Positions 3,670 through 20,755 are shown, numbered from the stretch's first letter. The stretch: 32,000 nt of DNA from Halorubrum ruber (GCF_018228765.1 NZ_CP073695.1:2309218-2341217); one strand, 5' to 3'. Notes: a model not told the origin generated them from the letters alone. Program-made: numbers and translations.

Positions 3670-3828
3670 ATGACTACTCTCTCTGATGACGAAGTCACAA
3701 TTTCAAGTGACAAGATTGAACAAATTCGGGAGCGCGTACTGAAAGCAGAAAAAGAGAAACTCCACTTAGATCTCCCACGTGGGATTAATGACGAAATTGA
3801 GCAAATAATTATAGAGGAAATTAACTAA
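3670..3828 (+). CDS. Small acidic protein (52 aa), first gene of the ATPase operon
   Basis: My own translation is MTTLSDDEVTISSDKIEQIRERVLKAEKEKLHLDLPRGINDEIEQIIIEEIN. It is below the ORF-track size cut-off. Its TAA shares one base with the next ATG (TAATG at 3826-3830), indicating translational coupling. Confidence 0.5.
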   Translation: MTTLSDDEVTISSDKIEQIRERVLKAEKEKLHLDLPRGINDEIEQIIIEEIN

Positions 3829-5858
3829 TGCAGCTACAACAGATTGAGTTACTAAACTTTCGGCAGTTCCGGCACGAAGCGATTGAATTTGCTCAGTCCT
3901 CTGATAAAAATGTCACCATCGTACATGGTGCCAATGGGTCCGGTAAATCGACATTACTCAACGCGTTTACTTGGCTGCTCTATGATGAGGTGGATTTCGA
4001 CACGCGTCCTGACAGACTGGCAAGTGAGGGTGCAATGGCCGAAGCATCTGTAGGTGACTCGATCTGTGTTTGTGTGGAGCTAGAATTTCTACATGATGGT
4101 ACTGAATACGTCGCTAGACGGGAGGTTGAATATGAAAAACGGGCTGACGGCGATTTTGATGGTGAACTTGTCGATGCCAATATGACAGTCAAGTACCGGG
4201 AGGGTGGCCAGTGGGAGGAGCGACTGAATCCTGATAATACGCTTGACCAGATTATCCCGAAACGATTGAGTGGCTTGTTTTTCTTTGACGGAGAGGATAT
4301 AGACGAACTTGCAGGGATTGACAATCAAGATCGCATTCAGGAAGCAATTCAAAATATAATGGGGCTCACTATTCTTGAGCGCTCTACCCGTCATTTGGAT
4401 ACTGTAGCGGACCGATTTGAAGATGAGGTGGAAAAGTATGCAAGTGATGAACTTTCAGATCTTATCTCTCAAAAGCGTGATATAGAGGAGGCTATTGATG
4501 ATCTTCAACGAAAACTCCAAGATACGAAGCGGTCTAAGGATCAAGTAGAACAAGAGATATTTGATCTTGAGCAAAAACTTGAACGGTTAGATGAGAGCGC
4601 CGCTCTTCAAGAGCGAAGAAATGAATATCGAGAAGAACGCTCCGATATTGAAGAGAATATTGAACAAATAAATGAACAGATCCGGAAAGAAGTCAGTGAT
4701 CACGGCTTCATTCCCCTCTCAATGCCCCTTATTCGGGAGACTGCAGAAGAGCTAGATTCGATGCGGGAACGTGGACTCATTCCTTCTGAATTGAGCAATT
4801 CATTCATTGATTCTTTACTTGAATCTGGGAGCTGTCTCTGCGGTCGTGAGTTGAAGCCAGGAACTGAACATTATCGTAAGGTGGAGGCGATGAAAGGTGA
4901 GGCAATTGGTGATGGCGTTGAACAAGGGGCACTTCGTATTGTTGGACACCTAAATCGGGTCTCCGAGGAAGAATCCAAATTCTTTGAAACTGCTGATGAA
5001 CTTATCGAGGAGAGAAAAGAACTTCATGACGAGCTTGACGATTATGATGAGCTAATCGATGAGATAAGTTCGGAACTACAGAAGCTTGATCAGACAACTG
5101 AATCTGGTCAGACAATTGGTGAGTTAGAATCTGAACGTGAAGAAAACGAAAGAAAGCGAGACGACCTCATTTCAGATATAGGCGGTATTGAAGAGCGAAT
5201 CGATCACAAGGAAGATGAGTTAGAGAGCCTCAAAGAGGAGATAGAGCAGCAACGCGATGAACATGAGGAGGCCCTCCTAGCCAAGCGTCGGCAAAAGGCG
5301 ACTGAACTTGTAGAAGAAGAGCTAGAATCTTCGTTCTCTGAGTTCAAAAATCAGGTCCGGGAGTGGGCAAATGACGAAATAAGAAAAACGTTTGGTGAGA
5401 TTGCGAGCAAAAACTTCACTGCTGAAATAACCGAAGAATTCAAGCTCAAAATCTGGCAAGAGGTCGGTGACGATCGTGTCGAAGTAGACAAATCAACCGG
5501 GGAACGCCAGATTGCTAGTCTTGCTTTTATTGGCAGTTTAGTCAAAATCGCCAGACAGAGATATGAATCTGAGAAAGACTCAGAGTACTTCACTGGTGGA
5601 ATTTATCCGTTGGTGATGGACTCTCCTTTTGGCGCTCTTGACAAGCGGCATCGACAAAAAGTTGGAGAGGTTATCCCCACTCTTGCAAACCAAGTAGTGG
5701 TCTTTGCGACCGACTCGCAGTGGGAAGGGCCAGTTGAAGAGGAGATGTCCGACAGGATCGGCGAACAATTTTGGCTTGATTACGACCCGGGAGAGTCGCC
5801 CGGCGAGTACCCCCAAACGAAAGTTCGCTCAGAGAGCACATCCATGGAAGCTAACTAA
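3828..5858 (+). CDS. DndD/SspC-like SMC-type AAA ATPase (676 aa)
   Basis: N-terminal IELLNFRQF..HGANGSGKSTLLNAF (Walker A). Long E/K/D/L-rich coiled-coil middle with a central CLCGRE hook-like motif. C-terminal STGERQIASLAF (signature-like) and YPLVMDSPFGALDKRHR (Walker B/D-loop of the DndD type). Confidence 0.85.
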   Translation: MQLQQIELLNFRQFRHEAIEFAQSSDKNVTIVHGANGSGKSTLLNAFTWLLYDEVDFDTRPDRLASEGAMAEASVGDSICVCVELEFLHDGTEYVARREVEYEKRADGDFDGELVDANMTVKYREGGQWEERLNPDNTLDQIIPKRLSGLFFFDGEDIDELAGIDNQDRIQEAIQNIMGLTILERSTRHLDTVADRFEDEVEKYASDELSDLISQKRDIEEAIDDLQRKLQDTKRSKDQVEQEIFDLEQKLERLDESAALQERRNEYREERSDIEENIEQINEQIRKEVSDHGFIPLSMPLIRETAEELDSMRERGLIPSELSNSFIDSLLESGSCLCGRELKPGTEHYRKVEAMKGEAIGDGVEQGALRIVGHLNRVSEEESKFFETADELIEERKELHDELDDYDELIDEISSELQKLDQTTESGQTIGELESEREENERKRDDLISDIGGIEERIDHKEDELESLKEEIEQQRDEHEEALLAKRRQKATELVEEELESSFSEFKNQVREWANDEIRKTFGEIASKNFTAEITEEFKLKIWQEVGDDRVEVDKSTGERQIASLAFIGSLVKIARQRYESEKDSEYFTGGIYPLVMDSPFGALDKRHRQKVGEVIPTLANQVVVFATDSQWEGPVEEEMSDRIGEQFWLDYDPGESPGEYPQTKVRSESTSMEAN

Positions 5859-5859
5859 A

Positions 5860-6342
5860 ATGGGACGTATTATCAATTACAAGAAAACCGAGCTGTACGA
5901 CACGCTGGTTGATGAGTACGAAGTCTTTGAGAATTACTATGACCTTCTCATCTTCCTTGCGGTTATAGGATATAAGGAAGACAACCCCGTCCGCGAGGGA
6001 TACCGTGGTAGTAGTTCGGAGGGTACAGCTGGTGAATCGGGGCTACATAATGTTTATTCTCAGGATCTGTATCGTACGATTATGGCTAGTCTAGCCTTTC
6101 AGGATACCGGAGACCCAGAGGCTCTCGTTGACGAACAAACACATATGAAAGTTCTTGCTCAGTATGCTGCAGGTGGACTAGAGATTGCCGAAGACGAGTT
6201 CGGAGATATTGCTGGTGATCCTACAGATGCGATAATCAATTATATAAAAATGTCTCAGAGCGAGGGCACCGGAACTGAAGGAGAGCTAGCCAAGATTGTT
6301 CAGAGTTTTGATGACGAGATGATGAACATCGAAGGGGAGTAA
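5860..6342 (+). CDS. Hypothetical 160-aa protein coupled to the ATPase (possibly related to small Dnd-system-associated proteins; unverified)
   Basis: ATG 5860 lies 1 nt after the ATPase stop. The ORF-track start at 5704 would overlap the ATPase by 155 nt and is unlikely. Acidic composition; no motif confidently recognised. Confidence 0.65.
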   Translation: MGRIINYKKTELYDTLVDEYEVFENYYDLLIFLAVIGYKEDNPVREGYRGSSSEGTAGESGLHNVYSQDLYRTIMASLAFQDTGDPEALVDEQTHMKVLAQYAAGGLEIAEDEFGDIAGDPTDAIINYIKMSQSEGTGTEGELAKIVQSFDDEMMNIEGE

Positions 6343-6416
6343 ATTAGCATTACAGCAAGTATTTTTAAATTAGCCATATCCACAACATTAAGACGCCGCT
6401 GAGTATCAAGGGGACC

Positions 6417-8903
6417 ATGGAAGAGGAATCCAATACGCCACTTTGTGGCAAAGAGATTTTTCTCTATCCGGGTGACCCGGATGGAACCGGTATGCTAGCG
6501 TACGATACCACCCAATACAGAGATCAGTATGATAATCTTCAGTTTGCAGACAGTACACAATTTATTAGTTCATTAGAAGAGAATATACGCCTTGAAAATC
6601 GTTCTCTCCTCCGCGTAGCAGAGGGAGAGAGATTTGTCGTACCTGAATACCAGCGGAATTTTACTTGGGAAGAGGATCAACATGAGGAACTTTGGAACAC
6701 TATATTATCTATTCAGGACCTAAAGCCGAAAGCGAATAATCTTCCTGTTGATACTTACTTTGGAACTGTGTACGTCGCCCGCGACGCCGACGGAGATGTA
6801 TTCGAGATTATTGACGGTCAGCAGCGTCTGACCACAGTAGCAATTATTCTAAAGAATCTAAAGCAGCAGCTAGAAGCTCGATTCGACAGTATAGATGGGC
6901 AGCTTCTCGAATATGCACAACATGTCTGTGACCGCCATTTAGAGGATCTATTATTCCGTGCTGACGGTCCGGCTATTACTCCCTTCATTACGTTGAATGA
7001 CCACGATCAGCCGTTCTTTGATATTGTGTTTAAAGAGAAAGAGGACCGGATTAAACCAGTAAAAAATCTCCCGCAATATGATGGACGAAAGACAAACTCA
7101 ATCACTGTGCAGTCACTTCTTGATGAACTTGATATCCCAGAAGAAGCATACGAAGAGGATGAAGACTTTGAGGACACTGACATGCTTGAATCGTACCGCT
7201 ACTATGGAGATGCACATAGACGACTCGTTAATGCTGACAAATTCTACAAGAAAAATATTAGACAGTTCATTGAGAAGGATATCTTTGAAACTCCGGCGAC
7301 AAAGGTCCGAGCGTTGCTAAATCTGACTCACTATATTCTCCGTTCCCTTCGCGTCTCAGAATGTATCTTTGAGACTAGTAATCAGGAGCTCCGAATCGAA
7401 GTCTTTCAATCGCTCAACGACCGTGGTGTTGAGTTATCGAATATGGATAAGATTCGAGCTCGTGTTGTGGGGCGATTCCAAGGAGAATCAGATAGTGGTG
7501 TACAGATCGATCGCTGGGAAAGCGTTGTCAAGACGTTTGGAGGAGATTCCGATGATGTTGAAGACTTTCTTGCCCACTATCTTGCAGCGACAGAGAAAGA
7601 ATTCTCTACGGTCACAGAAGCGAAAAACGAAATGCTCGAAGCATTTCGTCTCAAACAAATCGGTCATCACGATATCCAATCGAGACTGGCAAGCCCAGGC
7701 CAGGCTCGGGACTTCTTAGAAGAATTAGTGAATTATGCACAGCGATATCGTGAAATTGTTTCTGCCGATTTGACAGATGACGATTTAGAGCTGAAAGACC
7801 CAGAAAAAAGCGAGTGTGAGGAGATTCTCAAGCGGCTCAACAAACTTGGAACTAAACAGTGGCGGCCGTTCGTGATGTACGTCTACCAAGCGGTGACGGA
7901 AGCCCCACAAAAAGATCAGTTTTTGGTCGATGTCTTGAAAACAGTAGAGAATATCTCGTTCCGATTTTCTATATCGGATCTTGTCGGCACAGTCGTTGAT
8001 GACACTTATCCGGATTCCTGCCAAGAATTTCGAGAGCTTGAGCAGACGGGGAATCAATTTGATTCCGAGGAGGTATCTGAGATTCTTATTGAGAATATCG
8101 ATAATTCTGCACGACAGATGTTCGGCGAATCATTCATCGATCGACTTGTTAGTAAAGAGAGTTGGAACAACAACAAGACAAAACAACTGTACTTGAAGGT
8201 CGCGGATGAAGACTTTAGGAAGAGAAATCAGGTTGGGATCACGAACTCTCACCTCAGTTCAGACTCTAGTGAAGTACATATTGAACACGTACTCCCAGTA
8301 TCATACATTTTGCCTAAGAAAGACCATCCGTATGCGTGGTTAGAGCACTTCTTCCGTAATAACGGAGATAACAAGATTCGCACTCAGATCGATTATCTTC
8401 AGTCACGTGACGCACACGAGCTGTCACCCGGTGACGACGGCTATGATGAGATCGAGCGAATCGTAAATGGAATCGAGGAACGCTTCGTACGTGATCTTGG
8501 AAACATGATTTTGCTTGACGAAGCGGTCAACCGGCCGATTCAGAATCGTCTCTTTTCAGTCAAGCTCAAGGAGTACCACAAAGAGCACAGCAAGGACATG
8601 GAAAACATCATCAACCAATACTTCGGTACTGATGGAGCAATTGACGAAGCGGAACTTCAGCGCTTACTAGCGCTTGATATGCCCGATGATGAGACGAGAT
8701 CTAGTTCTCCCTCACTTGTTCAAGATTTCAACGAGTGGTGGACGTATGAGCGCCTCGTACAACGGAAATCACAGCTAGTGTCTGAAATTTTGGAATCACT
8801 CACATTCCCAACCAGACCAGACGAGTTCGAACCGTTTGTAGATGATATCGAAAATATAGTCGAGGAAGATGTTCAGAAGCGTTTAGCAGTTCTAACTGTC
8901 TAA
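6417..8903 (+). CDS. DUF262 (ParB-like NTPase) - DUF1524 (HNH-type nuclease) protein, GmrSD/SspE architecture (828 aa)
   Basis: N-terminal VPEYQRNFTWEEDQHEELW and IIDGQQRLTT (DUF262 hallmarks). C-terminal VHIEHVLP and GNMILLDEAVNRPIQNRLFSVKLKEY (DUF1524 hallmarks). TTTTTAAAT box at 6362-6370 suggests its own promoter. Confidence 0.85.
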   Translation: MEEESNTPLCGKEIFLYPGDPDGTGMLAYDTTQYRDQYDNLQFADSTQFISSLEENIRLENRSLLRVAEGERFVVPEYQRNFTWEEDQHEELWNTILSIQDLKPKANNLPVDTYFGTVYVARDADGDVFEIIDGQQRLTTVAIILKNLKQQLEARFDSIDGQLLEYAQHVCDRHLEDLLFRADGPAITPFITLNDHDQPFFDIVFKEKEDRIKPVKNLPQYDGRKTNSITVQSLLDELDIPEEAYEEDEDFEDTDMLESYRYYGDAHRRLVNADKFYKKNIRQFIEKDIFETPATKVRALLNLTHYILRSLRVSECIFETSNQELRIEVFQSLNDRGVELSNMDKIRARVVGRFQGESDSGVQIDRWESVVKTFGGDSDDVEDFLAHYLAATEKEFSTVTEAKNEMLEAFRLKQIGHHDIQSRLASPGQARDFLEELVNYAQRYREIVSADLTDDDLELKDPEKSECEEILKRLNKLGTKQWRPFVMYVYQAVTEAPQKDQFLVDVLKTVENISFRFSISDLVGTVVDDTYPDSCQEFRELEQTGNQFDSEEVSEILIENIDNSARQMFGESFIDRLVSKESWNNNKTKQLYLKVADEDFRKRNQVGITNSHLSSDSSEVHIEHVLPVSYILPKKDHPYAWLEHFFRNNGDNKIRTQIDYLQSRDAHELSPGDDGYDEIERIVNGIEERFVRDLGNMILLDEAVNRPIQNRLFSVKLKEYHKEHSKDMENIINQYFGTDGAIDEAELQRLLALDMPDDETRSSSPSLVQDFNEWWTYERLVQRKSQLVSEILESLTFPTRPDEFEPFVDDIENIVEEDVQKRLAVLTV

Positions 8904-9097
8904 GACTAGACTCTGCTATGGCCTACTCTTCAAATATACACTTACAGGGAATAGTAGGTCACTGAAGGATTGGAATAGGGCAGACTGGCCTATTTAAAAC
9001 GGTACTTCATCTTTTTCGAACTCTCCTCCCAATCATAGCCCTAATCACAGTCTTCACAATCGCATATACATGGCCCCTCTAATCAAATCTGTCAGAA

Positions 9098-9757
9098 TCA
9101 GACTGGTTGCTTTACAAACTCTGTTACAACGTAGAACGGAAGCGTATCAATTAGCGCGACAAGCAGCTTCACGATGTACTGCCCAGCGACGATTGAGGCG
9201 AGTGCCCAGCCCCACGTTGGCTCCCCACCAAGGCCGAGTGCCGGGAAGATAGCGAAGCCGAGCGTGATGAACACGATCGTGTCCACGCCTTGACTGACTG
9301 CAGTAGACCCACAGTTCCGAAGCCAGCGATGGCGACCGCCGGTGCGAGTCTTCAGATTGGCGAATAATCGGACGTCGAGATGCTGGGCGAACGCGAGCGC
9401 GACGACGGAGGCGAGGATGATCGATGCGGAGCCGCCAAGCGTCGATACGAACGCGTCTTGTCCACCGTAGAACGGGGCAGACGGCATCCAAATGGCGAGG
9501 AACACGAGCGCATACGCGATGACGAGCGTGACGACGGTTCCGTTGACCACGGTCGCAGCGTACTCTTTCCCGTGGTACTCGACAAGCAGGTCTGAAGCGA
9601 GGTAAGCCACGCCGAAGGCGACGAAACCGGCGGGGACGGCGACGCCCCCAAGCCCGGGGAGCTCGATCCACGTCAGTTTCGCTGCGAGGACGTTTGCGAG
9701 AACGATTGAACCGGCGAACACGGCGGTGAAGATCGCGCGAGTATCCTCAGTCTCCAT
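9098..9757 (-). CDS. yhhQ: VUT-family (YhhQ/DUF165) queuosine-precursor (preQ0/preQ1) transporter
   Basis: Polytopic membrane protein. The block AQHLDVRLFANLK..RHRWLRNCGSTAVSQGVDTIVFITLGF aligns by eye with E. coli YhhQ QILDVHVFNRLRQ..WWLAPTASTLFGNVSDTLAFFFIAF. Divergent from queD. Confidence 0.8.
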   Translation of the reverse strand: METEDTRAIFTAVFAGSIVLANVLAAKLTWIELPGLGGVAVPAGFVAFGVAYLASDLLVEYHGKEYAATVVNGTVVTLVIAYALVFLAIWMPSAPFYGGQDAFVSTLGGSASIILASVVALAFAQHLDVRLFANLKTRTGGRHRWLRNCGSTAVSQGVDTIVFITLGFAIFPALGLGGEPTWGWALASIVAGQYIVKLLVALIDTLPFYVVTEFVKQPV

Positions 9758-9911
9758 CAGCTGTCACCGTCTTGTATGGGCGTACAGTTTCCTGTGGTTC
9801 GCTGTCTTGAGCTGACCCCAGTAGAAACCGGTGCGCAACGACCGATAGGGTAGACGGTGGATGAGTGTGAGTCGGGTTGCTGTTCCATCGGTGAAGTAAC
9901 GAAACTCAATC

Positions 9912-9919
9912 TTTATATA
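9912..9919 (+). promoter_or_regulatory. TATA box (TTTATATA) for queD-queE(-queC)
   Basis: Ends 22 nt upstream of ATG 9941, consistent with a leaderless transcript. This supports 9941 rather than the track's GTG 9857 as the start. Confidence 0.5.
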
Positions 9920-9940
9920 TTCCCCGAATATTCTTCGAGT

Positions 9941-10402
9941 ATGTCCCGAAGTATATCAAGAGATGAATCCGAATCAGACGTCCTTCGTGAGGCCGGCCAA
10001 CGAACCCTCCACATCGGAGAGGATAACCCCATCCGAATTAGCTCGGGCCACCGTATTCTCCACCACGACGGAAAGTGCTCGCGGCCACACGGCCACAACT
10101 ACGAGATCGCCGTCGAAGTTACCGGCGAACTCATCGAAGAGGGGTGGGTCGTCGACAAAGGTGACGTCACAGACGTCATCGACGCGTGGGATCACCGATT
10201 CCTTGTCGAGGAGGGTGACCCGCTCGTCGACGCATTCGAGGCGTCGGGCGACGGCGACGCCCTCGTCGTCCTCGATCACCCACCAACGGCAGAGGTAATG
10301 AGCGTGCTCCTCGAACAGCGAATGCTCGACGCGTTCCCCGACACCGTCTCCGACGTGTCGGTGTCGGTGAGTGAAACCGGCGAGCTCTGTGCGAGTTACT
10401 GA
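9941..10402 (+). CDS. queD: 6-carboxy-5,6,7,8-tetrahydropterin synthase
   Basis: GHRILHHDGKCSRPHGHNYEIAVEVTG (QueD/PTPS Cys-His-His zinc/catalytic motif). Stop overlaps the queE ATG (TGATG). Confidence 0.9.
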   Translation: MSRSISRDESESDVLREAGQRTLHIGEDNPIRISSGHRILHHDGKCSRPHGHNYEIAVEVTGELIEEGWVVDKGDVTDVIDAWDHRFLVEEGDPLVDAFEASGDGDALVVLDHPPTAEVMSVLLEQRMLDAFPDTVSDVSVSVSETGELCASY

Positions 10403-11178
10403 TGCCAGTCGTAAGCGATGTGGAAGAACCCACAACGGACGCTGACGCGGCTGGTGAGGGCCTCCCAATCAACGAGGTGTTCTACTCGTTGCAGGGTGAG
10501 GGGACGCTCGCAGGCGTTCCCTCTGTCTTCGTGCGGACTTCTGGGTGTAACCTGCGGTGTTGGTTCTGCGATTCCTACCATACGTCGTGGGAGCCGACCG
10601 GCGCGTGGCGCGATGTCGACACGATCGTGGAAGAAGTACAGTCGCACGAACAGGCGAACCACGTCGTACTCACGGGCGGGGAGCCGCTCATCCACGAGGA
10701 GTCCATCGATCTCTTGGAGCGACTCGACGCCGAGGGGTACCACACAACGGTGGAGACAAACGGGACCATCTACCGGGACGCACCAATCGACCTCGCAAGC
10801 ATCAGCCCGAAGCTGGCGAGCAGCACGCCGACGCCGGATCGGGACCCGAAAGGCGAGGGCGAGTGGGAAGAGAAACACGAGCAAAACCGGATCGATATGG
10901 ATGCGTTGTCCCAGATGGTCGACGACTACGAGACGCAACTCAAGTTCGTCGTGACCGATGAGACAGACCTTCCGGAGATTACGGACCTCGTCGATCGAGT
11001 GCGGGCGGCGGCGACGACGACCATTGCTGACGACGACGTGTTGTTGATGCCGGAAGGTATGACGCGGGAGCAACTTGACGGAACGCGAAGCCAGGTGGCA
11101 GAGTTAGCGATGGAGTACGGCTACCGATACACCCCCCGACTCCACGTGGACCTGTGGAATGACGCACCCGGGACATGA
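10402..11178 (+). CDS. queE: 7-carboxy-7-deazaguanine synthase (radical SAM)
   Basis: INEVFYSLQGEGTLAGVPSVFVRTSGCNLRCWFCDS (QueE-type CxxxCxxC cluster motif) and VLTGGEPL. Confidence 0.9.
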   Translation: MPVVSDVEEPTTDADAAGEGLPINEVFYSLQGEGTLAGVPSVFVRTSGCNLRCWFCDSYHTSWEPTGAWRDVDTIVEEVQSHEQANHVVLTGGEPLIHEESIDLLERLDAEGYHTTVETNGTIYRDAPIDLASISPKLASSTPTPDRDPKGEGEWEEKHEQNRIDMDALSQMVDDYETQLKFVVTDETDLPEITDLVDRVRAAATTTIADDDVLLMPEGMTREQLDGTRSQVAELAMEYGYRYTPRLHVDLWNDAPGT

Positions 11179-11263
11179 ACGTCGCCTTGGTCGGCCCGAC
11201 CGATGGAGTGCCGTGGGGGCGTGGTGAACAGGACGACAATTGACTCAACACAACCGAAAATAC

Positions 11264-11953: not shown

Positions 11954-11997
11954 TACTGCTTCAATAGTCATAGAGGCTGTCACTGTACTTTTTGAGA

Positions 11998-12488: not shown

Positions 12489-12603
12489 CCGCTTAATATG
12501 CGATTCAATCTACCACAGTGATCGGTACAATCTGCTGGTCTAGCCCAGGTGTGCTCCGTAGAGTAGCCGATACTCTGATGATATTCCTCTACCAATCAAG
12601 CCT

Positions 12604-12789
12604 ATGCCGAAGGTAAGCGTTGAAATCCCTCAAGAGTTACTTGACGATCTTGACGACCACGTCGGCGACGAAGGAAAATTCGTCAACCGAAGCGACGCGA
12701 TTCGCGCCTCAATCCGCAAAACGCTCGATCTGCTAGAGGAAATCGATGAACGACAAGGGCGGATTGACTCATCTGAGGCTGACGACTGA
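12604..12789 (+). CDS. Ribbon-helix-helix (CopG/NikR-N-like) DNA-binding protein (61 aa)
   Basis: N-terminal MPKVSVEIPQELLDDLDDHV..NRSDAIRASIRKTL fits the beta-strand/helix/helix RHH pattern. Confidence 0.65.
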   Translation: MPKVSVEIPQELLDDLDDHVGDEGKFVNRSDAIRASIRKTLDLLEEIDERQGRIDSSEADD

Positions 12790-13006
12790 GATTTCTGATC
12801 GACATTGCTACTGTTCAACAGGAGAACTCACGTACCAACCAGCCTGGTAAATTCCCACAGTCTGCGGAGAATCTCTGTCGGATATAGAAGAGAGGCTACC
12901 CAGATGGGCACCACTTAGAGAAGATAGACCGAATTGATTCAAAAAATGATATATAGTTTATAATTCTAATGGAAAGATATATTTCATCACCTACAAACCA
13001 AAGAAT

Positions 13007-13732
13007 ATGGCTGATGATCCCGATATCATGACGGAGATTCTTGATGATATGAAATTGGATGACGATCGTGTCGATAATGAGTCCACCGATGGTCAATCCC
13101 AAAGTGAAGACATTCCGAATCTAGATGATTTACAAAAAGATGAGCGTCTTGAGCAACTAACCGAAGTAGGTCTTTTAACGGACGAAGAATATGATATACT
13201 GACTGAATATTATGATCGTACCACTAGTTCTGGCCAGCAAGAGTTCGGAACGCCGGTATACACCAGTGAAGGCTCAGAATTTGACTTTTCAATAGTTGGG
13301 GTTTTCCAAGATGTGAATACTAAAATTCTAACACTTCCGGAGTTCCTGAGCGTTGAGGAAGCTGACGATACCGAGACGTGGGATAATGAAGGGGGCCCTG
13401 GTCGAACGATTGTTTGTTTTCAGATTTACAATCACAGCTCCGAAGAAATCATGCTAAAACACAAAAATATCGAATATATCGGAGACAATGGAATTGCGTA
13501 CAATTATGACGGGAATCCATTAGTTAGTGATAGGCTTGAACCAGGCTGGCGAACCGATAACTGGGAATATATCGGACCAGATACAAGAATTCAGTACGCA
13601 TCTGTAATCGAGATGCCTGTGATTCCTGACTCATTGAAGCTCTCCGGATACTGGGAAGATACACATGAAATTGAACTAATAGATGACTTGTTTTTCCCAA
13701 AATCTGATTTACCGACTTCCGTTGAGATTTGA
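13007..13732 (+). CDS. Hypothetical acidic protein (241 aa); possible SHOCT-like motif plus C-terminal beta-sandwich (tentative)
   Basis: ORF with ATG and an upstream AT-rich region. The GLLTDEEYDILTEYY segment resembles SHOCT. The domain assignment is weak. Confidence 0.55.
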   Translation: MADDPDIMTEILDDMKLDDDRVDNESTDGQSQSEDIPNLDDLQKDERLEQLTEVGLLTDEEYDILTEYYDRTTSSGQQEFGTPVYTSEGSEFDFSIVGVFQDVNTKILTLPEFLSVEEADDTETWDNEGGPGRTIVCFQIYNHSSEEIMLKHKNIEYIGDNGIAYNYDGNPLVSDRLEPGWRTDNWEYIGPDTRIQYASVIEMPVIPDSLKLSGYWEDTHEIELIDDLFFPKSDLPTSVEI

Positions 13733-13855
13733 GAAGCTGACTCACTCTTTACAGAACTTTCAAATCAGATAATCAATCGCTGAAAGCACGTATAGACCGT
13801 ATCAGAGTCAGAACTTGTCACCTGAGGGTGTCTCAATAGAGCCTCTAAGAAAAAT

Positions 13856-15277
13856 CTATCCGGCGAGGAGGTCATATCTACGCTTTACTTCTTGTAATGA
13901 CCCCGTGGATGTCGGAACACCATCAACATCGGCGTCCGGATGATTCCGAGCAGTTTCCGCAAACATCGAAACTCGTTCGAGTTCCTTCCGGATGAGTGTC
14001 CGCTCAATTTCATACTGATCGTCGGACAGCATTTCTGGGTGTCTTTGAGTATCTGGTATTGTGATGAAGTCATGAATTACGGCATATTTTTTACCTTCGT
14101 ATTTTCGAAGGATCCGTCCTCTTCGTTGGACGTATTGTCGTGGATTCGATGTACTTGCTAGGATGTATGCCGTCCGTGTAGCAGGAATATCAACGCCCTC
14201 GTCAAGACATCTAATAGAAGTTAGAACGTCAATTTCTTCCTCATCGAACCGTGTCAACAGCTGTTTTCGTTCCTGTTGATTTTCGCGTGCGGTAAAGCGC
14301 TCAACAGACAAGTTACACTCATTTCGGATTCTCTCTGTTGTCAGGTCTACGTGACGCTGTAATTGGCCATCAACCTCCAATTTGCCATCACTACAGTAGA
14401 CAAGCGTGTGCTTGGTATCTATCTCAGAATTCAATAAATCAATAAGCAAGAATAGCTTCTCACGAGCGGTACCAATTAATCGAGCTCTTTTAAAAAGAGC
14501 TTGCTGTAAAGCAGGATTCTGTTCAAGATTCAAATTCCCTTCTTTGTCATTCGATTTCCCTGCAAGTCGACCGATCTTTGTGGTCAAACGCATGTACTCC
14601 TCCATCTCTTCGTCCTGTAATTCGACTATATGGGGAATGTAGTAATACTCACATAGTGCACCGGCTTCGATAGCTTTCTCAAGTCCATATTCAAAAACGG
14701 TTCCTCCAAAATATGCATCCAATTCTTTCGTCCCTTCTTCATCATACCATCTTTCTGGCGTTGCCGAAAGACCAAGTCGGAGGTCAAACTGATCACTAAG
14801 TGCCTCCTGTGTCTGAGCAGCACCCATATGGTGTACTTCATCTGCAATCAGCATTGAATTCCCGTTAGCCCTTCGAATTGTTTTTCTCGCAGATTCTCCT
14901 GACAGCGTTCGGTGTGTTGTAACTACTACGCAGGTGTCACGCATTCCGTTGTTGAATTCTAGCAGCTCACGTTCAAGCCGAGGTTGCCAATTACGTCGTG
15001 ATTCAAAGGCAAGAACAGGGGTAGCACCGAAATCATCGAGGTTAGATTTCCACTGATTAACGAGATGTTGATATGGCACTGCGACGACGAGCAGGAATTT
15101 TTTATCGACAGACTGATCCACACGCGTCGCGGCAAGGAGGGCTGTGACCGTTTTACCAGTCCCTGTTGCCATTTCTAGTATTCCCTTTCCTCCGGCAGAC
15201 ATCCACTCTTGTATTGCTTCTTGTTGATATGGACGGGCTTCTATCCAATCAGGAACGTGGAGGCCCTCATGAGACAT
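13856..15277 (-). CDS. Superfamily-2 helicase (ResIII + Helicase_C; XPB/Rad25-like DEAH type), 473 aa
   Basis: ARPYQQEAI (Q-like), MATGTGKT (Walker A), LIADEVHHMG (DEVH box), GLSATPER (motif III), LDEGVDIP and QYVQRRGRILR (motif VI). Start at ATG 15277 (MSHEGL..) is preferred because a TATA-like box sits 25 nt upstream, and the longer track ORF would overlap the divergent gene. Confidence 0.85.
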   Translation of the reverse strand: MSHEGLHVPDWIEARPYQQEAIQEWMSAGGKGILEMATGTGKTVTALLAATRVDQSVDKKFLLVVAVPYQHLVNQWKSNLDDFGATPVLAFESRRNWQPRLERELLEFNNGMRDTCVVVTTHRTLSGESARKTIRRANGNSMLIADEVHHMGAAQTQEALSDQFDLRLGLSATPERWYDEEGTKELDAYFGGTVFEYGLEKAIEAGALCEYYYIPHIVELQDEEMEEYMRLTTKIGRLAGKSNDKEGNLNLEQNPALQQALFKRARLIGTAREKLFLLIDLLNSEIDTKHTLVYCSDGKLEVDGQLQRHVDLTTERIRNECNLSVERFTARENQQERKQLLTRFDEEEIDVLTSIRCLDEGVDIPATRTAYILASTSNPRQYVQRRGRILRKYEGKKYAVIHDFITIPDTQRHPEMLSDDQYEIERTLIRKELERVSMFAETARNHPDADVDGVPTSTGSLQEVKRRYDLLAG

Positions 15278-15301
15278 CTTATCTACCTCAAAATGGCCCG
15301 C

Positions 15302-15312
15302 TGATATATATC
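15302..15312 (-). promoter_or_regulatory. TATA-like element (TGATATATATC on + strand) for the helicase gene
   Basis: Located 25 nt upstream of the minus-strand ATG at 15277, within the 165-bp divergent intergenic region. Confidence 0.4.
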
Positions 15313-15442
15313 TAAGCCGTGATGTTAAATTCACCAAAGTTAGGATTCCAAAAGCATCCTTAGCGAGAGTTCGAGTTGTTTTGGTCAAGAGAAGATTTGG
15401 TAACGAGTACTCTTTTACCTCCTCGGGATCGATACGGTTGCA

Positions 15443-15877
15443 ATGACAACGCTTCTGGTACAATCCTGTTCAGACACCAAAAACTCAGTCTCTACGCCCA
15501 CTCCGGCTCTTGATGTATATGATGGATATTTTTATAAAATTATCAAGAAGGCTATAAGAGAAGGAGAGTTTCGATCTGATATCGATATTCGAATTCTATC
15601 TGCAAAGCATGGTCTTCTCAAACCTAATGAGAAGATTCGATCCTATGACCGCCAGATGACTCAATCACGAGCTGCGGACCTTCGAGAGTCTGTCACAATG
15701 AATCTACAAGAACTGGTACAACAAAAGGAATACAACCGGATCGTTCTTAATATGGCCCGCGAGTATCGAAGTTCAATCGGAGAAATTCATGATTACCAAG
15801 GGCAAGTGAGTGAGATCTCTGGGAGTGGTATTGGCGAAAAGGGTGGGAAACTCAAGAAGTTCATCCGGGGAGACTGA
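15443..15877 (+). CDS. CSxTK-motif protein, DUF6884-like (144 aa)
   Basis: LLVQSCSDTK..ALDVYDGYFYK..ILSAKHGLLKPNEKIRSYD. By eye these motifs recur in the C-terminal domain of the 18734-20755 protein (LLIIPCSQTKPY..VSGMYGPVPEEFENISPIKSYE). The family name is from memory and unverified. Confidence 0.7.
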   Translation: MTTLLVQSCSDTKNSVSTPTPALDVYDGYFYKIIKKAIREGEFRSDIDIRILSAKHGLLKPNEKIRSYDRQMTQSRAADLRESVTMNLQELVQQKEYNRIVLNMAREYRSSIGEIHDYQGQVSEISGSGIGEKGGKLKKFIRGD

Positions 15878-15881
15878 CTGA

Positions 15882-17123
15882 ATGGGATTCAAACAAAAAC
15901 AGCATGATAATAATGGATTTGAGATTGCTAATCAAGCAGGAGCAGCACGCACTGGGACACTCCAAGTTGGAGACACAGAATTAAAAACACCAAATCTCTT
16001 TCCTGTAGTGAATTTCTACGCAGGGGGGACCTCATCAAGCCTGTACGGGGGAGGCATACATCGCACAATGAAGGAGTTCATGAACGGAGATGAAGTCATA
16101 AACGGCGGTGACTACAGCGAATACTTTGACGGCGTGATGACGTCTGTGGCTTCTTTAACTGACTACGGGATAACAAAAGAGCGATATGAAGAGTACATTG
16201 ACACTCCAATCAAGGAGAGAGACCTGTTTGATTTTGACGGCGTTCTATTTATTGATTCAGGGGGGTTCAAATTCCTCGGAGACAAGACATTGGATGGTAG
16301 TGATTTTGAAGTCGATGTCGATCAGAGGACAATTATAGAGATTCAACGTAAGCTTGGTGCTGACCTCGTTTTGAATCTTGACCGCCCAATTGAGCCTGAT
16401 GATGATTACGAAACTCGGATTCAAAAAGCACGTATGACGGCACAAAATGTCGATCAATTCCTTGAATTGACTGACCGACAGAAACAGACACGGTACCTAA
16501 CTCTTCATGGGTACAACTACTCTATGCTGAATACGTTTCTCACCGAGATTGAGAAAGTAATTGGAAAAAACCGTGTACACCGAGAATTTGACGGCGTAGC
16601 TCTCGGAAGCCTGGTTCCGCTTAAAGATAACAAGGGTAAGTTGATCACTGCGGTGAGCGACTGCAGAGAAGTCCTCGACGACTGGGGCTTTGATGATCTT
16701 CCATTACACGTCCTTGGTATTTCTTCAAGCGCAATTCCACTGCTTGCAGCAGTTGGTGCGGATACATTCGACTCATCGTCTTATCTTCACGCTGCAATTA
16801 ACGGGAAGTATCATACGTCGTTGTACAATACAGAACCGCTTGATGACGTTGATTTCTCAAACTGTGATTGCCCAGTCTGCTCTGACGACAAGCTTGTGAA
16901 TTGGATGGAGGGTGATGCCGAGTATCAGAAAGACAAGCTTGGAGCAGTATCAATGCATAACCTCATAATACAGAAAGAGGAAATCAGTCGCGTTAGGGAA
17001 GCAATCAGCAAGTCGGGAACCGACGGTTTGATTGAATATTTCGAACAATCGCTCAGCCGTCACAAATCGATGCAGCAGCATGCACACAGGGTTGTGAATG
17101 ATTCTCTTGGAGGATACTTCTAA
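15882..17123 (+). CDS. tRNA-guanine transglycosylase-fold protein, DpdA-like (413 aa, no PUA domain)
   Basis: GAARTGTLQVGDTELKTPNLFPVVNF, FIDSGGFKF, ALGSLVP, HVLGISS, GADTFDSSSY, and zinc motif CDCPVC followed by SMHN. Starts 4 nt after the upstream stop. Confidence 0.85.
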   Translation: MGFKQKQHDNNGFEIANQAGAARTGTLQVGDTELKTPNLFPVVNFYAGGTSSSLYGGGIHRTMKEFMNGDEVINGGDYSEYFDGVMTSVASLTDYGITKERYEEYIDTPIKERDLFDFDGVLFIDSGGFKFLGDKTLDGSDFEVDVDQRTIIEIQRKLGADLVLNLDRPIEPDDDYETRIQKARMTAQNVDQFLELTDRQKQTRYLTLHGYNYSMLNTFLTEIEKVIGKNRVHREFDGVALGSLVPLKDNKGKLITAVSDCREVLDDWGFDDLPLHVLGISSSAIPLLAAVGADTFDSSSYLHAAINGKYHTSLYNTEPLDDVDFSNCDCPVCSDDKLVNWMEGDAEYQKDKLGAVSMHNLIIQKEEISRVREAISKSGTDGLIEYFEQSLSRHKSMQQHAHRVVNDSLGGYF

Positions 17124-17125
17124 CA

Positions 17126-18679
17126 ATGTCAACAACAAAAACTCCCCAGGTAAATGAAGTAAACGAGTTCCTAGAAATTGCGAGTGACTTCGAAGATCCG
17201 CTCGAAGTAATCCGTGAATCCCTGTCTAATAGCTACGATGCAGGGGCTACTGAGGTCGAGATTACGATTAGAGACAGACCGATTGGATCCGAGATCGTGA
17301 TCGAAGATGATGGTGACGGGATGGACTATGCTGACCTAGAATCCTTCTTCGATTTGGGCAATTCGACGAAACGAGACCCGTCCTCTGATGCCATCGGCTA
17401 CAAAGGACATGGGACAAAAATATTCTATAAAAGCGAGGAGGTACTCGTCAATACTTCCAAAGAAGGAACGAATCTCCGTGCGCAAATGGAACAGCCCTGG
17501 GAAAAACTCAACAACCGAGTAATGCCTGAATACGAAGTTAGAGAACGCTCGGTGAAGGAGGGTAATAACGGGACTCACATCCGCATTACCGGATTCAAAT
17601 CCGGACGTGGATTCTCTCCTTCCTCACTTACTTATAATAAAATTGAACACTATTTGAAATGGAAGACGCTTGCAGGATCCACCGCTCACTACTTCACAGA
17701 TGACTATCACGAGATGGATATATATATCACGTTGGGTGACGAGATCGACGATACCCAGGAAACGCTCAAATTAGATAATAAACTCGAATTTCCCGATGAA
17801 CAGATTGAGCCCGGAGAAGGAAAATTTCCGGAATCAAGGATGTGTAAGCACTATCCACCTCGTGAGCTGACGGTGGAGACTGATGACGGAGATACAGCAA
17901 TTATCGAAGTAGTAGGCATGATTGGTGGGAAAGATGCTCGCAACGAACTCCCAACATACGGGAAGCATTCAGCGCAATTCGGGATCTGGCTTGCTAAGGA
18001 TTATATCAAAGTCGAACGTGTCAACGAAGTCATCTCACATGACAACGAGTTCCTCCACTTCTTTTTCGTGGCAAACTGCCAAGATATTGAGCTCTCTGCG
18101 AACCGTGAGAAAATCCGGAACAAATCGAGCTCTATCTACCAAGCAATTAAAGAAGAATTGAGCCACTATCTTTCCAAAATAGCTTCTGATCCTTGGTTCA
18201 AGGATTATCTCAATCAGCGACGAAAGGCCAAACTCTCGCGTCGAGCAGAATCTCAACAGTCTTCAGTCGAAGACCGTGAGAAGCGAATTCTCGATCGTGA
18301 GCAGTTTACTCCCTCTAATGATGCTGAGGTAGTTCTCGGTCTTGAAAGATCAAACCGGGAAGGTGCTCTCCCTAAGATTGTCGTTGAGGACTACGACCCC
18401 AGTGTAGAGGTTAACGCACTCGTCAAGCAGGATGATTCACTCTATGCGAGTTCGATCCATCATAAACTCACAGACCATTTTGAGGCAGACAAGCCTTTGG
18501 AGTCTGTTGATAAAATCATCTGCTGGTCGTATGGTGACCCCGACCAACTGAGTGAACTTGAGCGTCATGGATATCATGGGGGAGATATCACATTTGACCT
18601 CAATACAGGTCGGATTGAGTATCAGAACGGTCGAAAGCATAATATCCATATCGTTTCTGTCGAACAACGGTTTCAGTAG
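17126..18679 (+). CDS. GHKL-superfamily (HATPase_c_3 / MORC-Hsp90-like) ATPase (517 aa)
   Basis: N box IRESLSNSYDAGAT, G1 box IEDDGDGM, G2 box IGYKGHGTKIFY. Starts 2 nt after the TGT-like gene stop. Confidence 0.8.
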   Translation: MSTTKTPQVNEVNEFLEIASDFEDPLEVIRESLSNSYDAGATEVEITIRDRPIGSEIVIEDDGDGMDYADLESFFDLGNSTKRDPSSDAIGYKGHGTKIFYKSEEVLVNTSKEGTNLRAQMEQPWEKLNNRVMPEYEVRERSVKEGNNGTHIRITGFKSGRGFSPSSLTYNKIEHYLKWKTLAGSTAHYFTDDYHEMDIYITLGDEIDDTQETLKLDNKLEFPDEQIEPGEGKFPESRMCKHYPPRELTVETDDGDTAIIEVVGMIGGKDARNELPTYGKHSAQFGIWLAKDYIKVERVNEVISHDNEFLHFFFVANCQDIELSANREKIRNKSSSIYQAIKEELSHYLSKIASDPWFKDYLNQRRKAKLSRRAESQQSSVEDREKRILDREQFTPSNDAEVVLGLERSNREGALPKIVVEDYDPSVEVNALVKQDDSLYASSIHHKLTDHFEADKPLESVDKIICWSYGDPDQLSELERHGYHGGDITFDLNTGRIEYQNGRKHNIHIVSVEQRFQ

Positions 18680-18733
18680 ACGGCTGCAGGTAGCCGACTT
18701 TATCACATTCCGACTTCAATCAAAAGCCATAGA

Positions 18734-20755
18734 ATGGCATCGTTTGAGACTACATCTTCTGACGAGGCCGGTAATGCTCGAACCGGAACTCTCCACACTC
18801 CTCACGGTGATGTGGAAACGCCAGCGTTCTTCCCAGTTGTCAATTTCATAGGCGGACCAGATGAGAAATCAGGGGGAATATGGAGCCGACTTCGGAATCA
18901 CCTATTCGGCGAACCGGATTTTCAGGGAGCGATGTTTCAAGCGATGAGCTTCCTCGATTTTAACATCTCTCCCGATTCTCTCGATAACTGGCGATCAAAG
19001 TCTCTTCATGAGCATTTCACTGGGCATGAGCCAGTTAAGCCATATCATGATCAGCCGGAAGACTTTACCAAGCCGTTGTTTGTTGACTCTGGCGGATTCA
19101 AACTGCTGAATTCCGATACGTTCGGAGATAGACCTGAGGAGGGTGGTTCAGATAACGACTGGTCGATATACACCAATCCTGAGAGCATCCTTGAATTACA
19201 ACTTGACTACGGCGCGGACATAATTGCCACACTAGATTACCCCATTCCACCGAATCTCAACGAGGAAGAGACGACTCAGCGAATGGAAGACAGTATTGAT
19301 AGTGCTATACGCTGTCTTGAGCTTCTTGAACAAAGAGATGAGTCACCAGCAGTCTATGTGGCCATTCATGGCCACGACTACGAAACGATCAACTGGTATG
19401 TTGGTACGTTTCTTGACCGGGCAGGAGACCTTGACAACGCGTTCGAAGGGTTTGCAGTAGGGTCGCTAGTTCCACTCCGCACCAACGTAGAAACACTCGT
19501 TGATATTGTACAGGGTGCGAAGGATGCAATTCCTGAAAATCGGGTAGACGACCTCGGACTGCACCTGTTCGGCATTAGTGGGAAGTTCACTGCACTTCTT
19601 GCTCTTCTGGGTGCAGACTCGTTCGATTCATCTAGCTACATCCGTGCTGCCCAATTCAAGAAATTCATCAACCGCGAAATCGGTGTTGACGACGGTACGA
19701 CCGTTCGGCACCCAGATTCGGATAGCCACGATCTTGGCGATTTTGGTGTCGACATAGAACGGACATCTGAAGCGCGCTGGGCAGCGGACTGGTCAAAGTT
19801 CTCTGCCGATCAGATCCCCGACGACTGGGATTGCCAGTGCTCAGCTTGCGAAGCACTCCGCGAGATTGGGTATGACCAGATGCAGTCCACCCTATTCGAC
19901 AGCAAATCGTATGACCAGAGCGGAGATCATATGAAGAGCGATTTCTACGCGCTAATGGGGTATCACAACTTCCACGTTTATCAAGACGAGATGGACTATG
20001 TCCGCAATCTTATCCAACAGGGAGATGGTGAACTCCTCGACTACGTCGCTAAGATGGCCCGTAATGATGTAGGCGGCATTAGACAGGCACTCAAACGGGC
20101 TACTGTCCGCGACAGAGATTTGGCTACAGAACTCCGAGAACGTGGTTACGACAGACTCGTCGCTGAACGGGCGGACGGAGAGCAGGAACGCCTCAATGTC
20201 GACCTTCCGGTTGAAAGCCACGAGATCTCTCTTGAGTACACGCCCGAGGACTTCAATGTCTTAGAGCGTGACGACTATTGTCCGGGTGACGAACGAGTAC
20301 TTCTGATCATACCCTGCAGTCAAACCAAGCCGTACTCAAATTCCCGCACTCACCGAGTAGTCGCTGACGCGACTACCGAATGGAAGGATGAAATACACAA
20401 AGTCACCGTTTCAGGGATGTACGGTCCTGTCCCTGAAGAATTTGAGAATATTTCACCGATCAAATCATACGAATACGTCCTAACTGATGCCGAAACAGAC
20501 CGTCAGAATCTCATCAAAAATCGACTCGTCGAATATTTAAATCGTTTTGGCGGTGACTTCGATGTAATTGTTGGCTACGCCACGAGTAAGACATATCGTG
20601 AAGTCATCAAGCGATCCTTGGAAGAGTATGGCGAAGGTGTAGTTTTGCCTCGTGAACCCGAAATGCGAGCGTTGACAGAACACTTCCGTACAACGAATCT
20701 TCAGCAATTGGCAGACTATCTTGAGGAAGAATTAGCACCCCAAACCCGGAATTAG
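18734..20755 (+). CDS. TGT-fold / DUF5591-like fusion, ArcS-like but lacking PUA (673 aa)
   Basis: The N-terminal half has GNARTGTLHTPHGDVETPAFFPVVNF, FVDSGGFKLL, AVGSLVP, HLFGISG, GADSFDSSSY, and zinc motif CQCSAC followed by GYHNFH. The C-terminal roughly 155 aa (about nt 20290-20755) has LLIIPCSQTKPYSNSRTH..SGMYGPVPEE..YEY, as in the ArcS DUF5591 region. Confidence 0.85.
   Translation: MASFETTSSDEAGNARTGTLHTPHGDVETPAFFPVVNFIGGPDEKSGGIWSRLRNHLFGEPDFQGAMFQAMSFLDFNISPDSLDNWRSKSLHEHFTGHEPVKPYHDQPEDFTKPLFVDSGGFKLLNSDTFGDRPEEGGSDNDWSIYTNPESILELQLDYGADIIATLDYPIPPNLNEEETTQRMEDSIDSAIRCLELLEQRDESPAVYVAIHGHDYETINWYVGTFLDRAGDLDNAFEGFAVGSLVPLRTNVETLVDIVQGAKDAIPENRVDDLGLHLFGISGKFTALLALLGADSFDSSSYIRAAQFKKFINREIGVDDGTTVRHPDSDSHDLGDFGVDIERTSEARWAADWSKFSADQIPDDWDCQCSACEALREIGYDQMQSTLFDSKSYDQSGDHMKSDFYALMGYHNFHVYQDEMDYVRNLIQQGDGELLDYVAKMARNDVGGIRQALKRATVRDRDLATELRERGYDRLVAERADGEQERLNVDLPVESHEISLEYTPEDFNVLERDDYCPGDERVLLIIPCSQTKPYSNSRTHRVVADATTEWKDEIHKVTVSGMYGPVPEEFENISPIKSYEYVLTDAETDRQNLIKNRLVEYLNRFGGDFDVIVGYATSKTYREVIKRSLEEYGEGVVLPREPEMRALTEHFRTTNLQQLADYLEEELAPQTRN

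Follow-up and report, generated by a model that had tools for sequence, protein, structure and literature searches.

Do three neighbouring blocks of haloarchaeal genes, one able to supply the queuosine precursor preQ0, one encoding transglycosylases and one resembling known restriction effectors, work as a single modification-restriction island? The question is raised by a 17-kb cluster at positions 3670-20755 of a 32,000-nucleotide (nt) stretch of the Halorubrum ruber chromosome, here called the window (G000:C1:2309218-2341217), which is part of a complete genome of 3.02 Mb with 68.9% guanine plus cytosine (GC). A sequence-only reading had proposed such an island, and open reading frame (ORF) listing and family scans confirmed its gene order, its coordinates and the identity of every gene that it named. 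The cluster is moderately likely to be the functional heart of a mobile element, namely a modification-dependent defence island made of three exchangeable modules. Of this account, the gene identities, the motifs, the mobility and a conserved linkage between the preQ0 supply genes and the transglycosylase operon, the putative writer of the modification, are directly established.

Supply genes and the transglycosylase operon

The supply cassette and the writer operon comprise the following genes, where TGT stands for tRNA-guanine transglycosylase and aa for amino acids.

9098-9757, minus strand: YhhQ-type queuosine-precursor (preQ0) transporter; Pfam Vut_1 135 bits, TIGR00697 127.8 bits against a cut-off of 51
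9857-10402, plus strand: QueD (6-carboxytetrahydropterin synthase); Pfam PTPS 70 bits, TIGR03367 70.6 bits, its cut-off of 89 not reached
10402-11178, plus strand: QueE (radical-SAM 7-carboxy-7-deazaguanine synthase); Pfam Radical_SAM, best NCBIfam matches being QueE models, all under their cut-offs
11240-11953, plus strand: QueC (preQ0 synthase); Pfam QueC 246.5 bits, TIGR00364 189 bits, above its cut-off
15443-15877, plus strand: DUF6884 protein of a YaaA-like fold family, candidate DpdC/ArcS-type modifier of preQ0-DNA; Pfam DUF6884 52 bits
15882-17123, plus strand: TGT413, a minimal TGT of 413 aa without C1, C2 or PUA domains, candidate DpdA-like transglycosylase; Pfam TGT 97 bits
17126-18679, plus strand: MORC/MutL-like GHKL ATPase, 517 aa; Pfam HATPase_c_3 63 bits
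18734-20755, plus strand: TGT673, a TGT of 673 aa fused to DUF5591 (the ArcS C1-type domain), without PUA; Pfam TGT 109 bits, DUF5591 70 bits

The precursor pathway had been described as ending at preQ0 and as accompanied by a transporter, and both statements were borne out: YhhQ is well matched, and the whole genome gave no match to QueF. The true start of queD is possibly downstream of 9857, and queE is located between queD and queC in every relative.

The distribution of the writer genes was surveyed in 300 other genomes sampled across the order, a full-length homologue of the GHKL ATPase defining a module genome. Such homologues occur in 22 of the 300, spread over 18 of 91 genera (that of H. 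ruber included), along with one degraded copy. The 20 kb around each homologue, together with loci from an earlier draw, one contig and one plasmid, gave 28 haloarchaeal loci, and in all 28 the genes for the DUF6884 protein, TGT413 and the GHKL ATPase are colinear, at 39-82% aa identity. The TGT/DUF5591 gene lies beside this module in about 23 of them, in varying position and orientation. The queDEC genes are found within 10 kb of the module at 12 of the 28 loci and within 35 kb at 5 more, where the chance expectation for a single locus that close is about 2%. Cassette and transglycosylase genes recur jointly in divergent haloarchaea, at 43-60% aa identity and in differing orders and orientations. 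Likewise, queC is present in all 22 module genomes as against 166 of the 278 others (Fisher p = 2e-5, uncorrected for relatedness), and four genomes carry two queC copies, one of them adjoining the module (G213, G251, G280, G313). This comparative evidence is strong, and supply and writer very probably work together.

The module is also found on megaplasmids. Its proteins are named 'tRNA-guanine transglycosylase' or 'ATP-binding protein' in the databases, and all named homologues are haloarchaeal apart from those on one 5-kb contig (5139 nt) labelled Streptomyces sanglieri, which encodes adjacent TGT and GHKL proteins 60% identical to those of the window; this assembly is likely contaminated or mislabelled.

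The nature of the writer is indicated by the company it keeps elsewhere. When the neighbours of all 28 loci were clustered and then matched to PADLOC, a helicase of about 1370 aa present at 10 of them matched DpdJ (180 bits), and a 149-aa PLD protein present at 8 of them matched DpdK (41.5 bits), both of which are restriction-side genes in the bacterial Dpd system. It is because of these neighbours, the intact TGTs without PUA, the GHKL and DUF6884 proteins and the published biochemistry that the module is read as an archaeal Dpd-like system and the operon, probably, as its writer. No gene of the DpdD-K set was found in this window or genome, and several module loci have no recognisable restriction partner within 10 kb.

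The operon is compact, its successive gaps being 4, 2 and 54 nt, and the catalytic aspartate and the zinc site are intact in both TGTs. In an alignment to the Pyrococcus horikoshii ArcTGT (1IQ8), TGT413 conserves D95, D249 and the CxCxxC...H zinc site. TGT673 retains VDSGGF, SFDSSSY, CQCSAC and PCSQTKPY, the last of these being the ArcS C1 motif, defined as PCX3KPY (PMC5699537, PMC10516641), and neither protein gave a match to a PUA or C2 domain. The DUF6884 protein has CSDTK and LSAKHG, which correspond to the family motifs CxxxK and LSAxxG. Its other matches are weaker ones to YaaA and DUF5591 in Pfam, one to PADLOC PDC-M57A (3e-9), and a weak, partial one to PADLOC DpdC (E = 8.7e-7, 26.5 bits, over 86 residues only). 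For the GHKL protein, an AlphaFold2 model (mean predicted local distance difference test 75.7) gave MORC2, the MutL N-terminal domain, SMCHD1 and GyrB as top Foldseek matches, and the whole-chain search assigned no fold to the C-terminal 120 or so residues (about 400-517).

Published work on related proteins allows a scheme to be drawn. The DUF6884 family is YaaA-like and is predicted to bind DNA and flip bases (PMC11701544); a stand-alone DUF5591 protein, ArcS2, expressed together with DpdA2, leads to dG+ in DNA (PMC10516641); and DpdA requires ATP hydrolysis by DpdB, while DpdC works on preQ0-DNA (PMC10164549). In the scheme, QueD, QueE and QueC would make preQ0, the host providing GTP cyclohydrolase, and YhhQ could also import it. 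The PUA-less TGT would swap guanine in DNA for preQ0, the GHKL ATPase would provide the ATP-dependent clamping or opening of DNA that is the role of the ParB-like DpdB in bacteria, and the DUF6884 protein and the DUF5591 domain would convert the nitrile on DNA into dADG or a dG+-like base. We infer DNA as the substrate, the chemical product and the role of the GHKL protein, and the two TGTs would divide the labour between them.

The likeness to the bacterial Dpd system (dpdA-K, Salmonella Montevideo type) extends to a TGT-superfamily enzyme with its catalytic residues in place, an obligatory-looking ATPase gene beside it, a small third enzyme with a weak resemblance to DpdC, interspersed preQ0 genes, a mobile island and, at other haloarchaeal loci, the DpdJ- and DpdK-like neighbours. 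Unlike its bacterial counterpart, TGT413 is nearer to archaeal TgtA, its best curated match (137.8 bits, cut-off 350), than to bacterial DpdA (NF041059 29.7 bits, cut-off 200; PADLOC DpdA 24.7 bits). The ATPase is a MORC/MutL-like GHKL protein and not a ParB/DUF262-type DpdB; the only DUF262 protein in the cluster is an 828-aa SspE/GmrSD-like protein, which belongs to the other operon and keeps its nuclease motif. There is, besides, a second TGT fused to an ArcS C1 domain, the genome is devoid of DpdD-K, and the host is an archaeon.

The resemblance to TgtA raises another explanation, namely that both TGTs and the DUF6884 protein act on tRNA or another RNA in an alternative archaeosine-type pathway. 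The match of TGT673 to the ArcS models (82.8 bits; TgtA 98.1 bits) points the same way, and the island holds the only preQ0 pathway for host tRNA archaeosine. Nevertheless, the scores of the two proteins lie far under the cut-offs of 350 (TgtA) and 440 (ArcS), and the PUA and C2 domains are missing from both. Moreover, the host retains elsewhere in its genome a separate full-length tgtA (537-aa frame) and a separate ArcS (DUF5591 211 bits), and the conserved partners are of DNA type, including MORC/MutL-like GHKL, DpdJ/K-like, GmrSD and SF2 helicase genes. Action on RNA is thus a highly improbable account of the operon.

Viruses offer a further comparison. As in the viral DpdA/ArcS2 pathways (Vibrio phage nt-1, Sulfolobus virus STSV2, haloviruses), a PUA-less DUF5591 domain accompanies a DNA transglycosylase and preQ0 genes, and YhhQ is shared with some haloviruses. 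Here, however, the setting is cellular (island or plasmid), a complete TGT carries the DUF5591 domain as a fusion, restriction-type genes accompany the module, and a search of 50,697 phage records gave no homologue of TGT413. A viral origin was rejected on this last result and on the distance of queC, which is at most 40% identical to any copy in the phage collection.

The same evidence bears on a selfish function, in which the element would mark its own and the host's DNA with 7-deazaguanine to evade other restriction systems, as tailed viruses do, and no cognate reader would exist. It is known that 7-deazaguanines shield viral DNA against restriction and that haloviruses bear preQ0 genes and YhhQ (PMC6884629, PMC8651126); the cluster sits on an integrated element, other modules on megaplasmids, and the loci with no restriction partner nearby would suit such a function. 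The absence of TGT413 from the phage records speaks against it, as do the lack of evident virion genes among the island ORFs scanned and the many module loci with DpdJ/DpdK-like restriction-type genes. Anti-restriction is therefore an improbable purpose.

Other genes recur around the module. A trio of ORFs (about 224, 724-997 and 293 aa) that has no Pfam or PADLOC match lies by it at 7-9 of the 28 loci (for example L054:15540-19987 and L055:15160-19614), and a 184-aa GIY-YIG-like ORF at 9; all are candidates for further module partners. In Haloferax prahovense (LK053003.1, L089, 15716-20355), a Piwi-domain Argonaute and its PLD-like partner lie about 4 kb from the module, and an integrase is nearby.

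The effector arm and its proposed pairing with the writer

The third block was named an effector arm, and its genes are listed below together with a helicase that had been placed in the transglycosylase arm.

3670-3828, plus strand: 52-aa acidic ORF in the PbeB position; no Pfam or PADLOC match
3828-5858, plus strand: PbeC-like CxC-type ABC ATPase (DndD relative), 676 aa; PADLOC PbeC 759.9 bits, 1-653/651, full length
5860-6342, plus strand: 160-aa ORF in the PbeD position (the DndE-cognate position), assigned by position and size only
6417-8903, plus strand: SspE/GmrSD-like DUF262-DUF1524 NTPase-nuclease, 828 aa; Pfam GmrSD_N 104 bits and GmrSD_C 31 bits, both above their cut-offs
13856-15277 (ORF to 15463), minus strand: PbeA-like SF2 helicase without an HKD/PLD nuclease domain; PADLOC PbeA 550 bits, TIGR04095 560 bits

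The first three ORFs overlap or abut, and the GmrSD gene follows 74 nt further on. The PbeC-like protein bears a CLC motif at residues 336-338, in the middle of its coiled coil, and reaches 160.6 bits with the DndD model TIGR03185, under the cut-off of 245.85. Related cassettes occur at eight loci (G025, G272, G265, G192, G077, G209 twice, and G218). In all eight, the helicase, PbeC and the PbeD-position ORF are contiguous on a single strand and in that order, and homologues of the 52-aa ORF (46-66% identity, tblastn) are found between helicase and PbeC in six. The 160-aa ORF is kept after PbeC in all eight at 25-64% identity; it gave no match, to DndE or any other model, in Pfam or PADLOC (both to E = 0.1), and none to DndE in a PDB profile search. 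An attempt to recognise it as DndE by sequence was abandoned, since a profile of its seven-sequence family matched just spurious repeat proteins in the PDB.

Judged by sequence, the helicase belongs to this Pbe-like cassette and not to the transglycosylase arm, so the earlier assignment is overturned. It matches only positions 242-668 of the 672 in PbeA, which is the helicase part. Its likely start is M63 (about 15277), giving a protein of about 473 aa; the relatives have 468-475 aa and align from residues 56-68, and PbeA has this short form of about 470 aa in all eight related cassettes. The order helicase-PbeB-PbeC-PbeD agrees with the published PbeABCD architecture (PMC6459918; re-annotated in PMC10853773). 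In H. ruber the cassette is split, the helicase lying 7.5 kb away in opposite orientation and facing the TGT operon over a divergent spacer of 165 nt. From the gene order, one inversion of 3670-13800 would restore a contiguous helicase-PbeB-PbeC-PbeD-GmrSD operon pointing away from the TGT operon, which is how G025 is arranged; a repeat search found no inverted repeats flanking that segment.

The 828-aa protein has DGQQR at residue 133 and EHVLP, an EHxxP motif, at 623, motifs that in SspE serve as NTPase and in nicking, respectively (PMC10164549). Its best PADLOC matches are HEC-06 and Orf5, SspE being weak (46 bits). It resembles SspE of the SspABCD-SspE system and the GmrSD/BrxU type IV enzymes in joining a DUF262 domain with DGQQR to a DUF1524 domain with EHxxP beside a DNA modification module; it differs from SspE in the weakness of that match, in a partner modification that is not phosphorothioate and in being embedded in a Pbe-like operon. 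The protein may replace the missing nuclease of PbeA.

Taken together, the cassette is close to the haloarchaeal DndCDEA-PbeABCD systems (Xiong 2019), which correspond to the CxC ABC ATPase-DndE systems (Krishnan 2024), in its full-length PbeC with CxC (760 bits), its PbeA-type SF2 helicase and the small and roughly 160-aa proteins before and after PbeC, an order shared by the eight relatives. It departs from them in that no dnd genes are present in the genome, PbeA has no HKD/PLD nuclease, the operon includes an additional GmrSD/SspE-like nuclease, the helicase gene stands apart in inverted orientation, and the nearby modification genes are those for 7-deazaguanine and not for phosphorothioate or methyl marks. 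The DndC model TIGR03183 had no match in this genome or in G272, G192, G077, G209 and G218, the genomes searched, with G025 and G265 left out. In the proposed scheme, the PbeABCD-like cassette and the SspE/GmrSD-like NTPase-nickase would form the reader of the mark, scanning DNA and acting on what is unmarked.

Whether this set is coupled to the writer depends on how often the two meet. The PbeC homologues of at least 60% identity number three (G265 70%, G025 63%, G272 60%), all in module genomes, and the nearest PbeC/PbeA homologues span 60-72% identity. Fisher tests gave p = 3e-4 for this subclade and 0.01 for homologues of at least 42% identity, values whose significance is inflated by the kinship of the genomes. 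The cassette of G025 lies some 5 kb from the module and 16 kb from queC; that of G272 is separated from queC by 4 kb and from GHKL by 21 kb, and the assembly of G265 is too fragmented for its cassette to be placed relative to the module.

An alternative account treats the two sets as neighbours and not partners: que and TGT genes would form one Dpd-like system, orphaned or otherwise used, and the Pbe-like and GmrSD genes a separate, self-sufficient defence that shares the island only. GmrSD-family enzymes can work alone as type IV enzymes, the island also bears GajB-like, HNH and resolvase genes, and the Haloferax prahovense module sits by a prokaryotic Argonaute system. On the other hand, the distance from the module to the nearest PbeC/PbeA homologues, where these can be placed, is 5-22 kb, and the homologues rank by identity (G265 > G025 ~ G272) as GHKL and the TGT do. 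GmrSD homologues of 67% identity directly follow GHKL in G107 and G315, and PbeABCD requires a mark on the host DNA for its activity (PMC6459918), while this genome contains no dnd genes. Mere neighbourhood is thus a rather unlikely explanation.

The proposal of a coupled island has to be set against several observations that weaken it. The effector arm occurs in only 3 of the 22 other module genomes; the remaining 19 have no Pbe-like cassette, most module genomes carrying DpdJ/DpdK-like genes, other partners or no recognised partner instead. Conversely, the module is missing from four of the seven genomes that carry related short-PbeA cassettes, which makes the pairing facultative, and defence genes cluster in islands whatever their function. 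The cassette, split and with its helicase inverted, might be inactive, and its 160-aa ORF has no detectable similarity to DndE. On the writer side there is no orthologue of DpdB, the part ascribed to the GHKL protein being an analogy, and TGT413 is both far under the curated DpdA cut-off and unmatched in the phage collection. Lastly, the whole layout was matched in a congener, G009, at the same tRNA-Leu, which is not an independent observation.

The cassettes that lack the module have company of their own. The more distant short-PbeA cassettes adjoin DUF1156 N6/N4 methylases (G209, G218), an McrB-like gene (G192), or helicases and PD-(D/E)XK nucleases, and the pairing with methylases or McrB-like genes fits the idea that Pbe systems work with other marks, which was raised with methylases in mind (PMC6459918). 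Coupling of the effector arm to the writer is therefore plausible but facultative. The earlier claim that the three blocks work as one island keeps its supply-writer part, which the survey of the 28 loci supports, and loses its block boundaries and the constant presence of the effector arm; the co-occurrence that it called for across haloarchaea is likewise found between que genes and writer, and for the effector only in those three module genomes. Comparison of these sequences leaves about an even chance that readers and writers can be exchanged and that, in this island, a 7-deazaguanine writer has a Pbe/SspE-like reader as its partner.

The integrated element and its parts

The cluster is real, but it does not stand as a unit of 17 kb, as had been described, since it is part of a 38.5-kb mobile element in a tRNA-Leu gene of the Halorubrum chromosome. 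This follows from low GC (44-60%) over a stretch from about window -9.6 kb to +28.9 kb and from a direct repeat, in which the first 44 nt of the tRNA gene (28902-28945) recur without mismatch (44/44) at window -9571..-9528. The features referred to in this section are the following.

11998-12399, minus strand: 133-aa ORF; no family match, bracketed by the queC 3' end and the ghost copy
12420-12485, plus strand: ghost copy of the queC 3' end, 66 nt, 85% identical to 11886-11951 (repeat search); it also surfaced as a weak match when queC was sought, and is present in G009 too
13007-13732, plus strand: 241-aa acidic ORF, variable cargo; no family match
28902-28986, plus strand: tRNA-Leu (ARAGORN)

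Empty sites were sought by joining 1.5 kb of left flank to the tRNA and right flank and running the construct against 40 congeners. Both flanks and the tRNA-Leu are contiguous within about 3-9 kb in G334, G019, G012, G013 and G002, and none of these sites holds que genes. The congener G009 carries the entire 3810-20760 at 89-94% nt identity (about 95% aa) and at the same tRNA-Leu site, with a different right-hand island part; sharing genus and site, it was counted with H. ruber as one observation.

Mobility extends to the que cassette itself. Its GC of 58-61% differs from the 43-47% of the flanking arms, and homology breaks off at its edges, at 9096/9114 (or 9877-9927) and at 11952/11953. The mosaic origin that had been suggested for the middle block is supported by this composition and by the breakpoints at 9096/9114 and 11953. 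In congeners with the cassette, the DNA on both sides maps to scattered places of the H. ruber genome, and other genera and families have copies of at least 89% identity (G056, G253, G048). Two samples of congeners, with many genomes that are 99% complete, showed queC in just 13 of 24 and 8 of 14 cases; about 45% of the sampled Halorubrum genomes, 99%-complete ones included, are without any queC.

These data settle the standing of the que genes. They might have been an ordinary core operon caught between two independent insertions, a view favoured by queC being the single true copy in the genome and by a GC nearer to the genome's than that of the arms. The GC is nevertheless 8-10 points under that of the genome, and the island-free congeners, the sampling of congeners and the scattered flanks all disagree with it, so that a core operon has next to no probability and was rejected on patchiness, breakpoints and empty sites. 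Of the scenario that the earlier reading had named as its own refutation, the strain's only queCDE set proved true, while the same position in island-free relatives did not, the five empty sites being free of que genes. The cassette is not a core operon, given its patchy distribution, unrelated contexts, edge breakpoints, GC and the que-free empty sites, and preQ0 synthesis seems, in this group, to be an accessory trait that is passed on horizontally.

Between queC and the helicase lies a variable stretch, for which three cargo genes had been described; two, of 133 and 241 aa, are solid ORFs, and the third, of 61 aa, is doubtful and of unproven status. Homologues of the 133-aa ORF lie downstream of queC in G009 (90%) and G313 (73%), and the small cargo by queC varies, an HNH gene taking this place in G306. 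The 241-aa ORF is missing from G009, whose locus carries different DNA there. Partial copies of the queC 3' end are also found 0.5-18 kb downstream of queC in several congeners (loci include G019:C12:371158, G002:C30, G015:C18, G021:C18 and G016:C315), which suggests that the end of queC is a recurrent point of recombination or insertion.

The rest of the island holds further genes. Upstream of the cluster (window -1814..2812) are a 431-aa ORF, a 670-aa UvrD-type helicase and a 441-aa ORF without matches; the helicase shows GajB-like matches (PADLOC 81 bits) and may be part of another island defence pair. The right part (20811-28700) includes a serine resolvase (22094-22861), an HNH endonuclease (23295-23777) and a TRAM-domain ORF (25956-26369), and is almost wholly unlike the corresponding section of the G009 island. 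An inverted fragment of the 3' part of the tRNA, 45 nt long and 91% identical, lies at 28670-28714, about 200 nt upstream of tRNA-Leu. The 339-aa ORF adjoining the left repeat has no Pfam match, so that no integrase was identified.

Place among known systems and meaning for haloarchaea

DNA marks of the 7-deazaguanine type have been described in bacterial Dpd islands and in viruses. As regards archaeal cells, the search turned up only a brief mention of a 'DpdA homolog' in Haloarcula vallismortis (PMC6884629), and a comparative study of CxC systems makes no mention of deazaguanine, TGT or queC (PMC10853773). The literature search found no description of a DUF6884-TGT-GHKL module, nor of a Dpd-like writer combined with a Pbe-like or SspE-like effector. 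By sequence comparison, the island is probably a new combination of known kinds, a Dpd-like writer and a Pbe/SspE-like reader.

A bolder proposal can be built on the same genes: haloarchaea would place in their own chromosomal DNA a base derived from preQ0, archaeosine-type or other, through a GHKL-dependent transglycosylase system distinct from bacterial DpdAB, and the Pbe-type CxC ABC ATPase machinery, so far known only from defence that relies on phosphorothioate, would read this base modification. The proposal is tentative and, for now, doubtful. Were it true, writers (phosphorothioate, methyl, 7-deazaguanine) and readers (Pbe, SspE/GmrSD, DpdJ/K) would be freely interchangeable cassettes, and the host's tRNA archaeosine would now depend on a mobile element for its precursor.

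At the strength given to each of its parts, the locus and its 28 or so relatives would amount to a Dpd-like system of haloarchaea, with another ATPase partner and additional ArcS-type chemistry, and they predict a modified deoxynucleoside in Halorubrum DNA. The Pbe papers themselves ask whether Pbe-type effectors can also work with marks besides phosphorothioate, and the locus would be a natural place to test it; it would likewise exemplify how mobile elements shuffle cassettes for writing, reading and precursor supply. Because it contains the only queC of the genome, the cassette must also supply the host's tRNA archaeosine, and a housekeeping tRNA modification is thus apparently reliant on an island-borne pathway.

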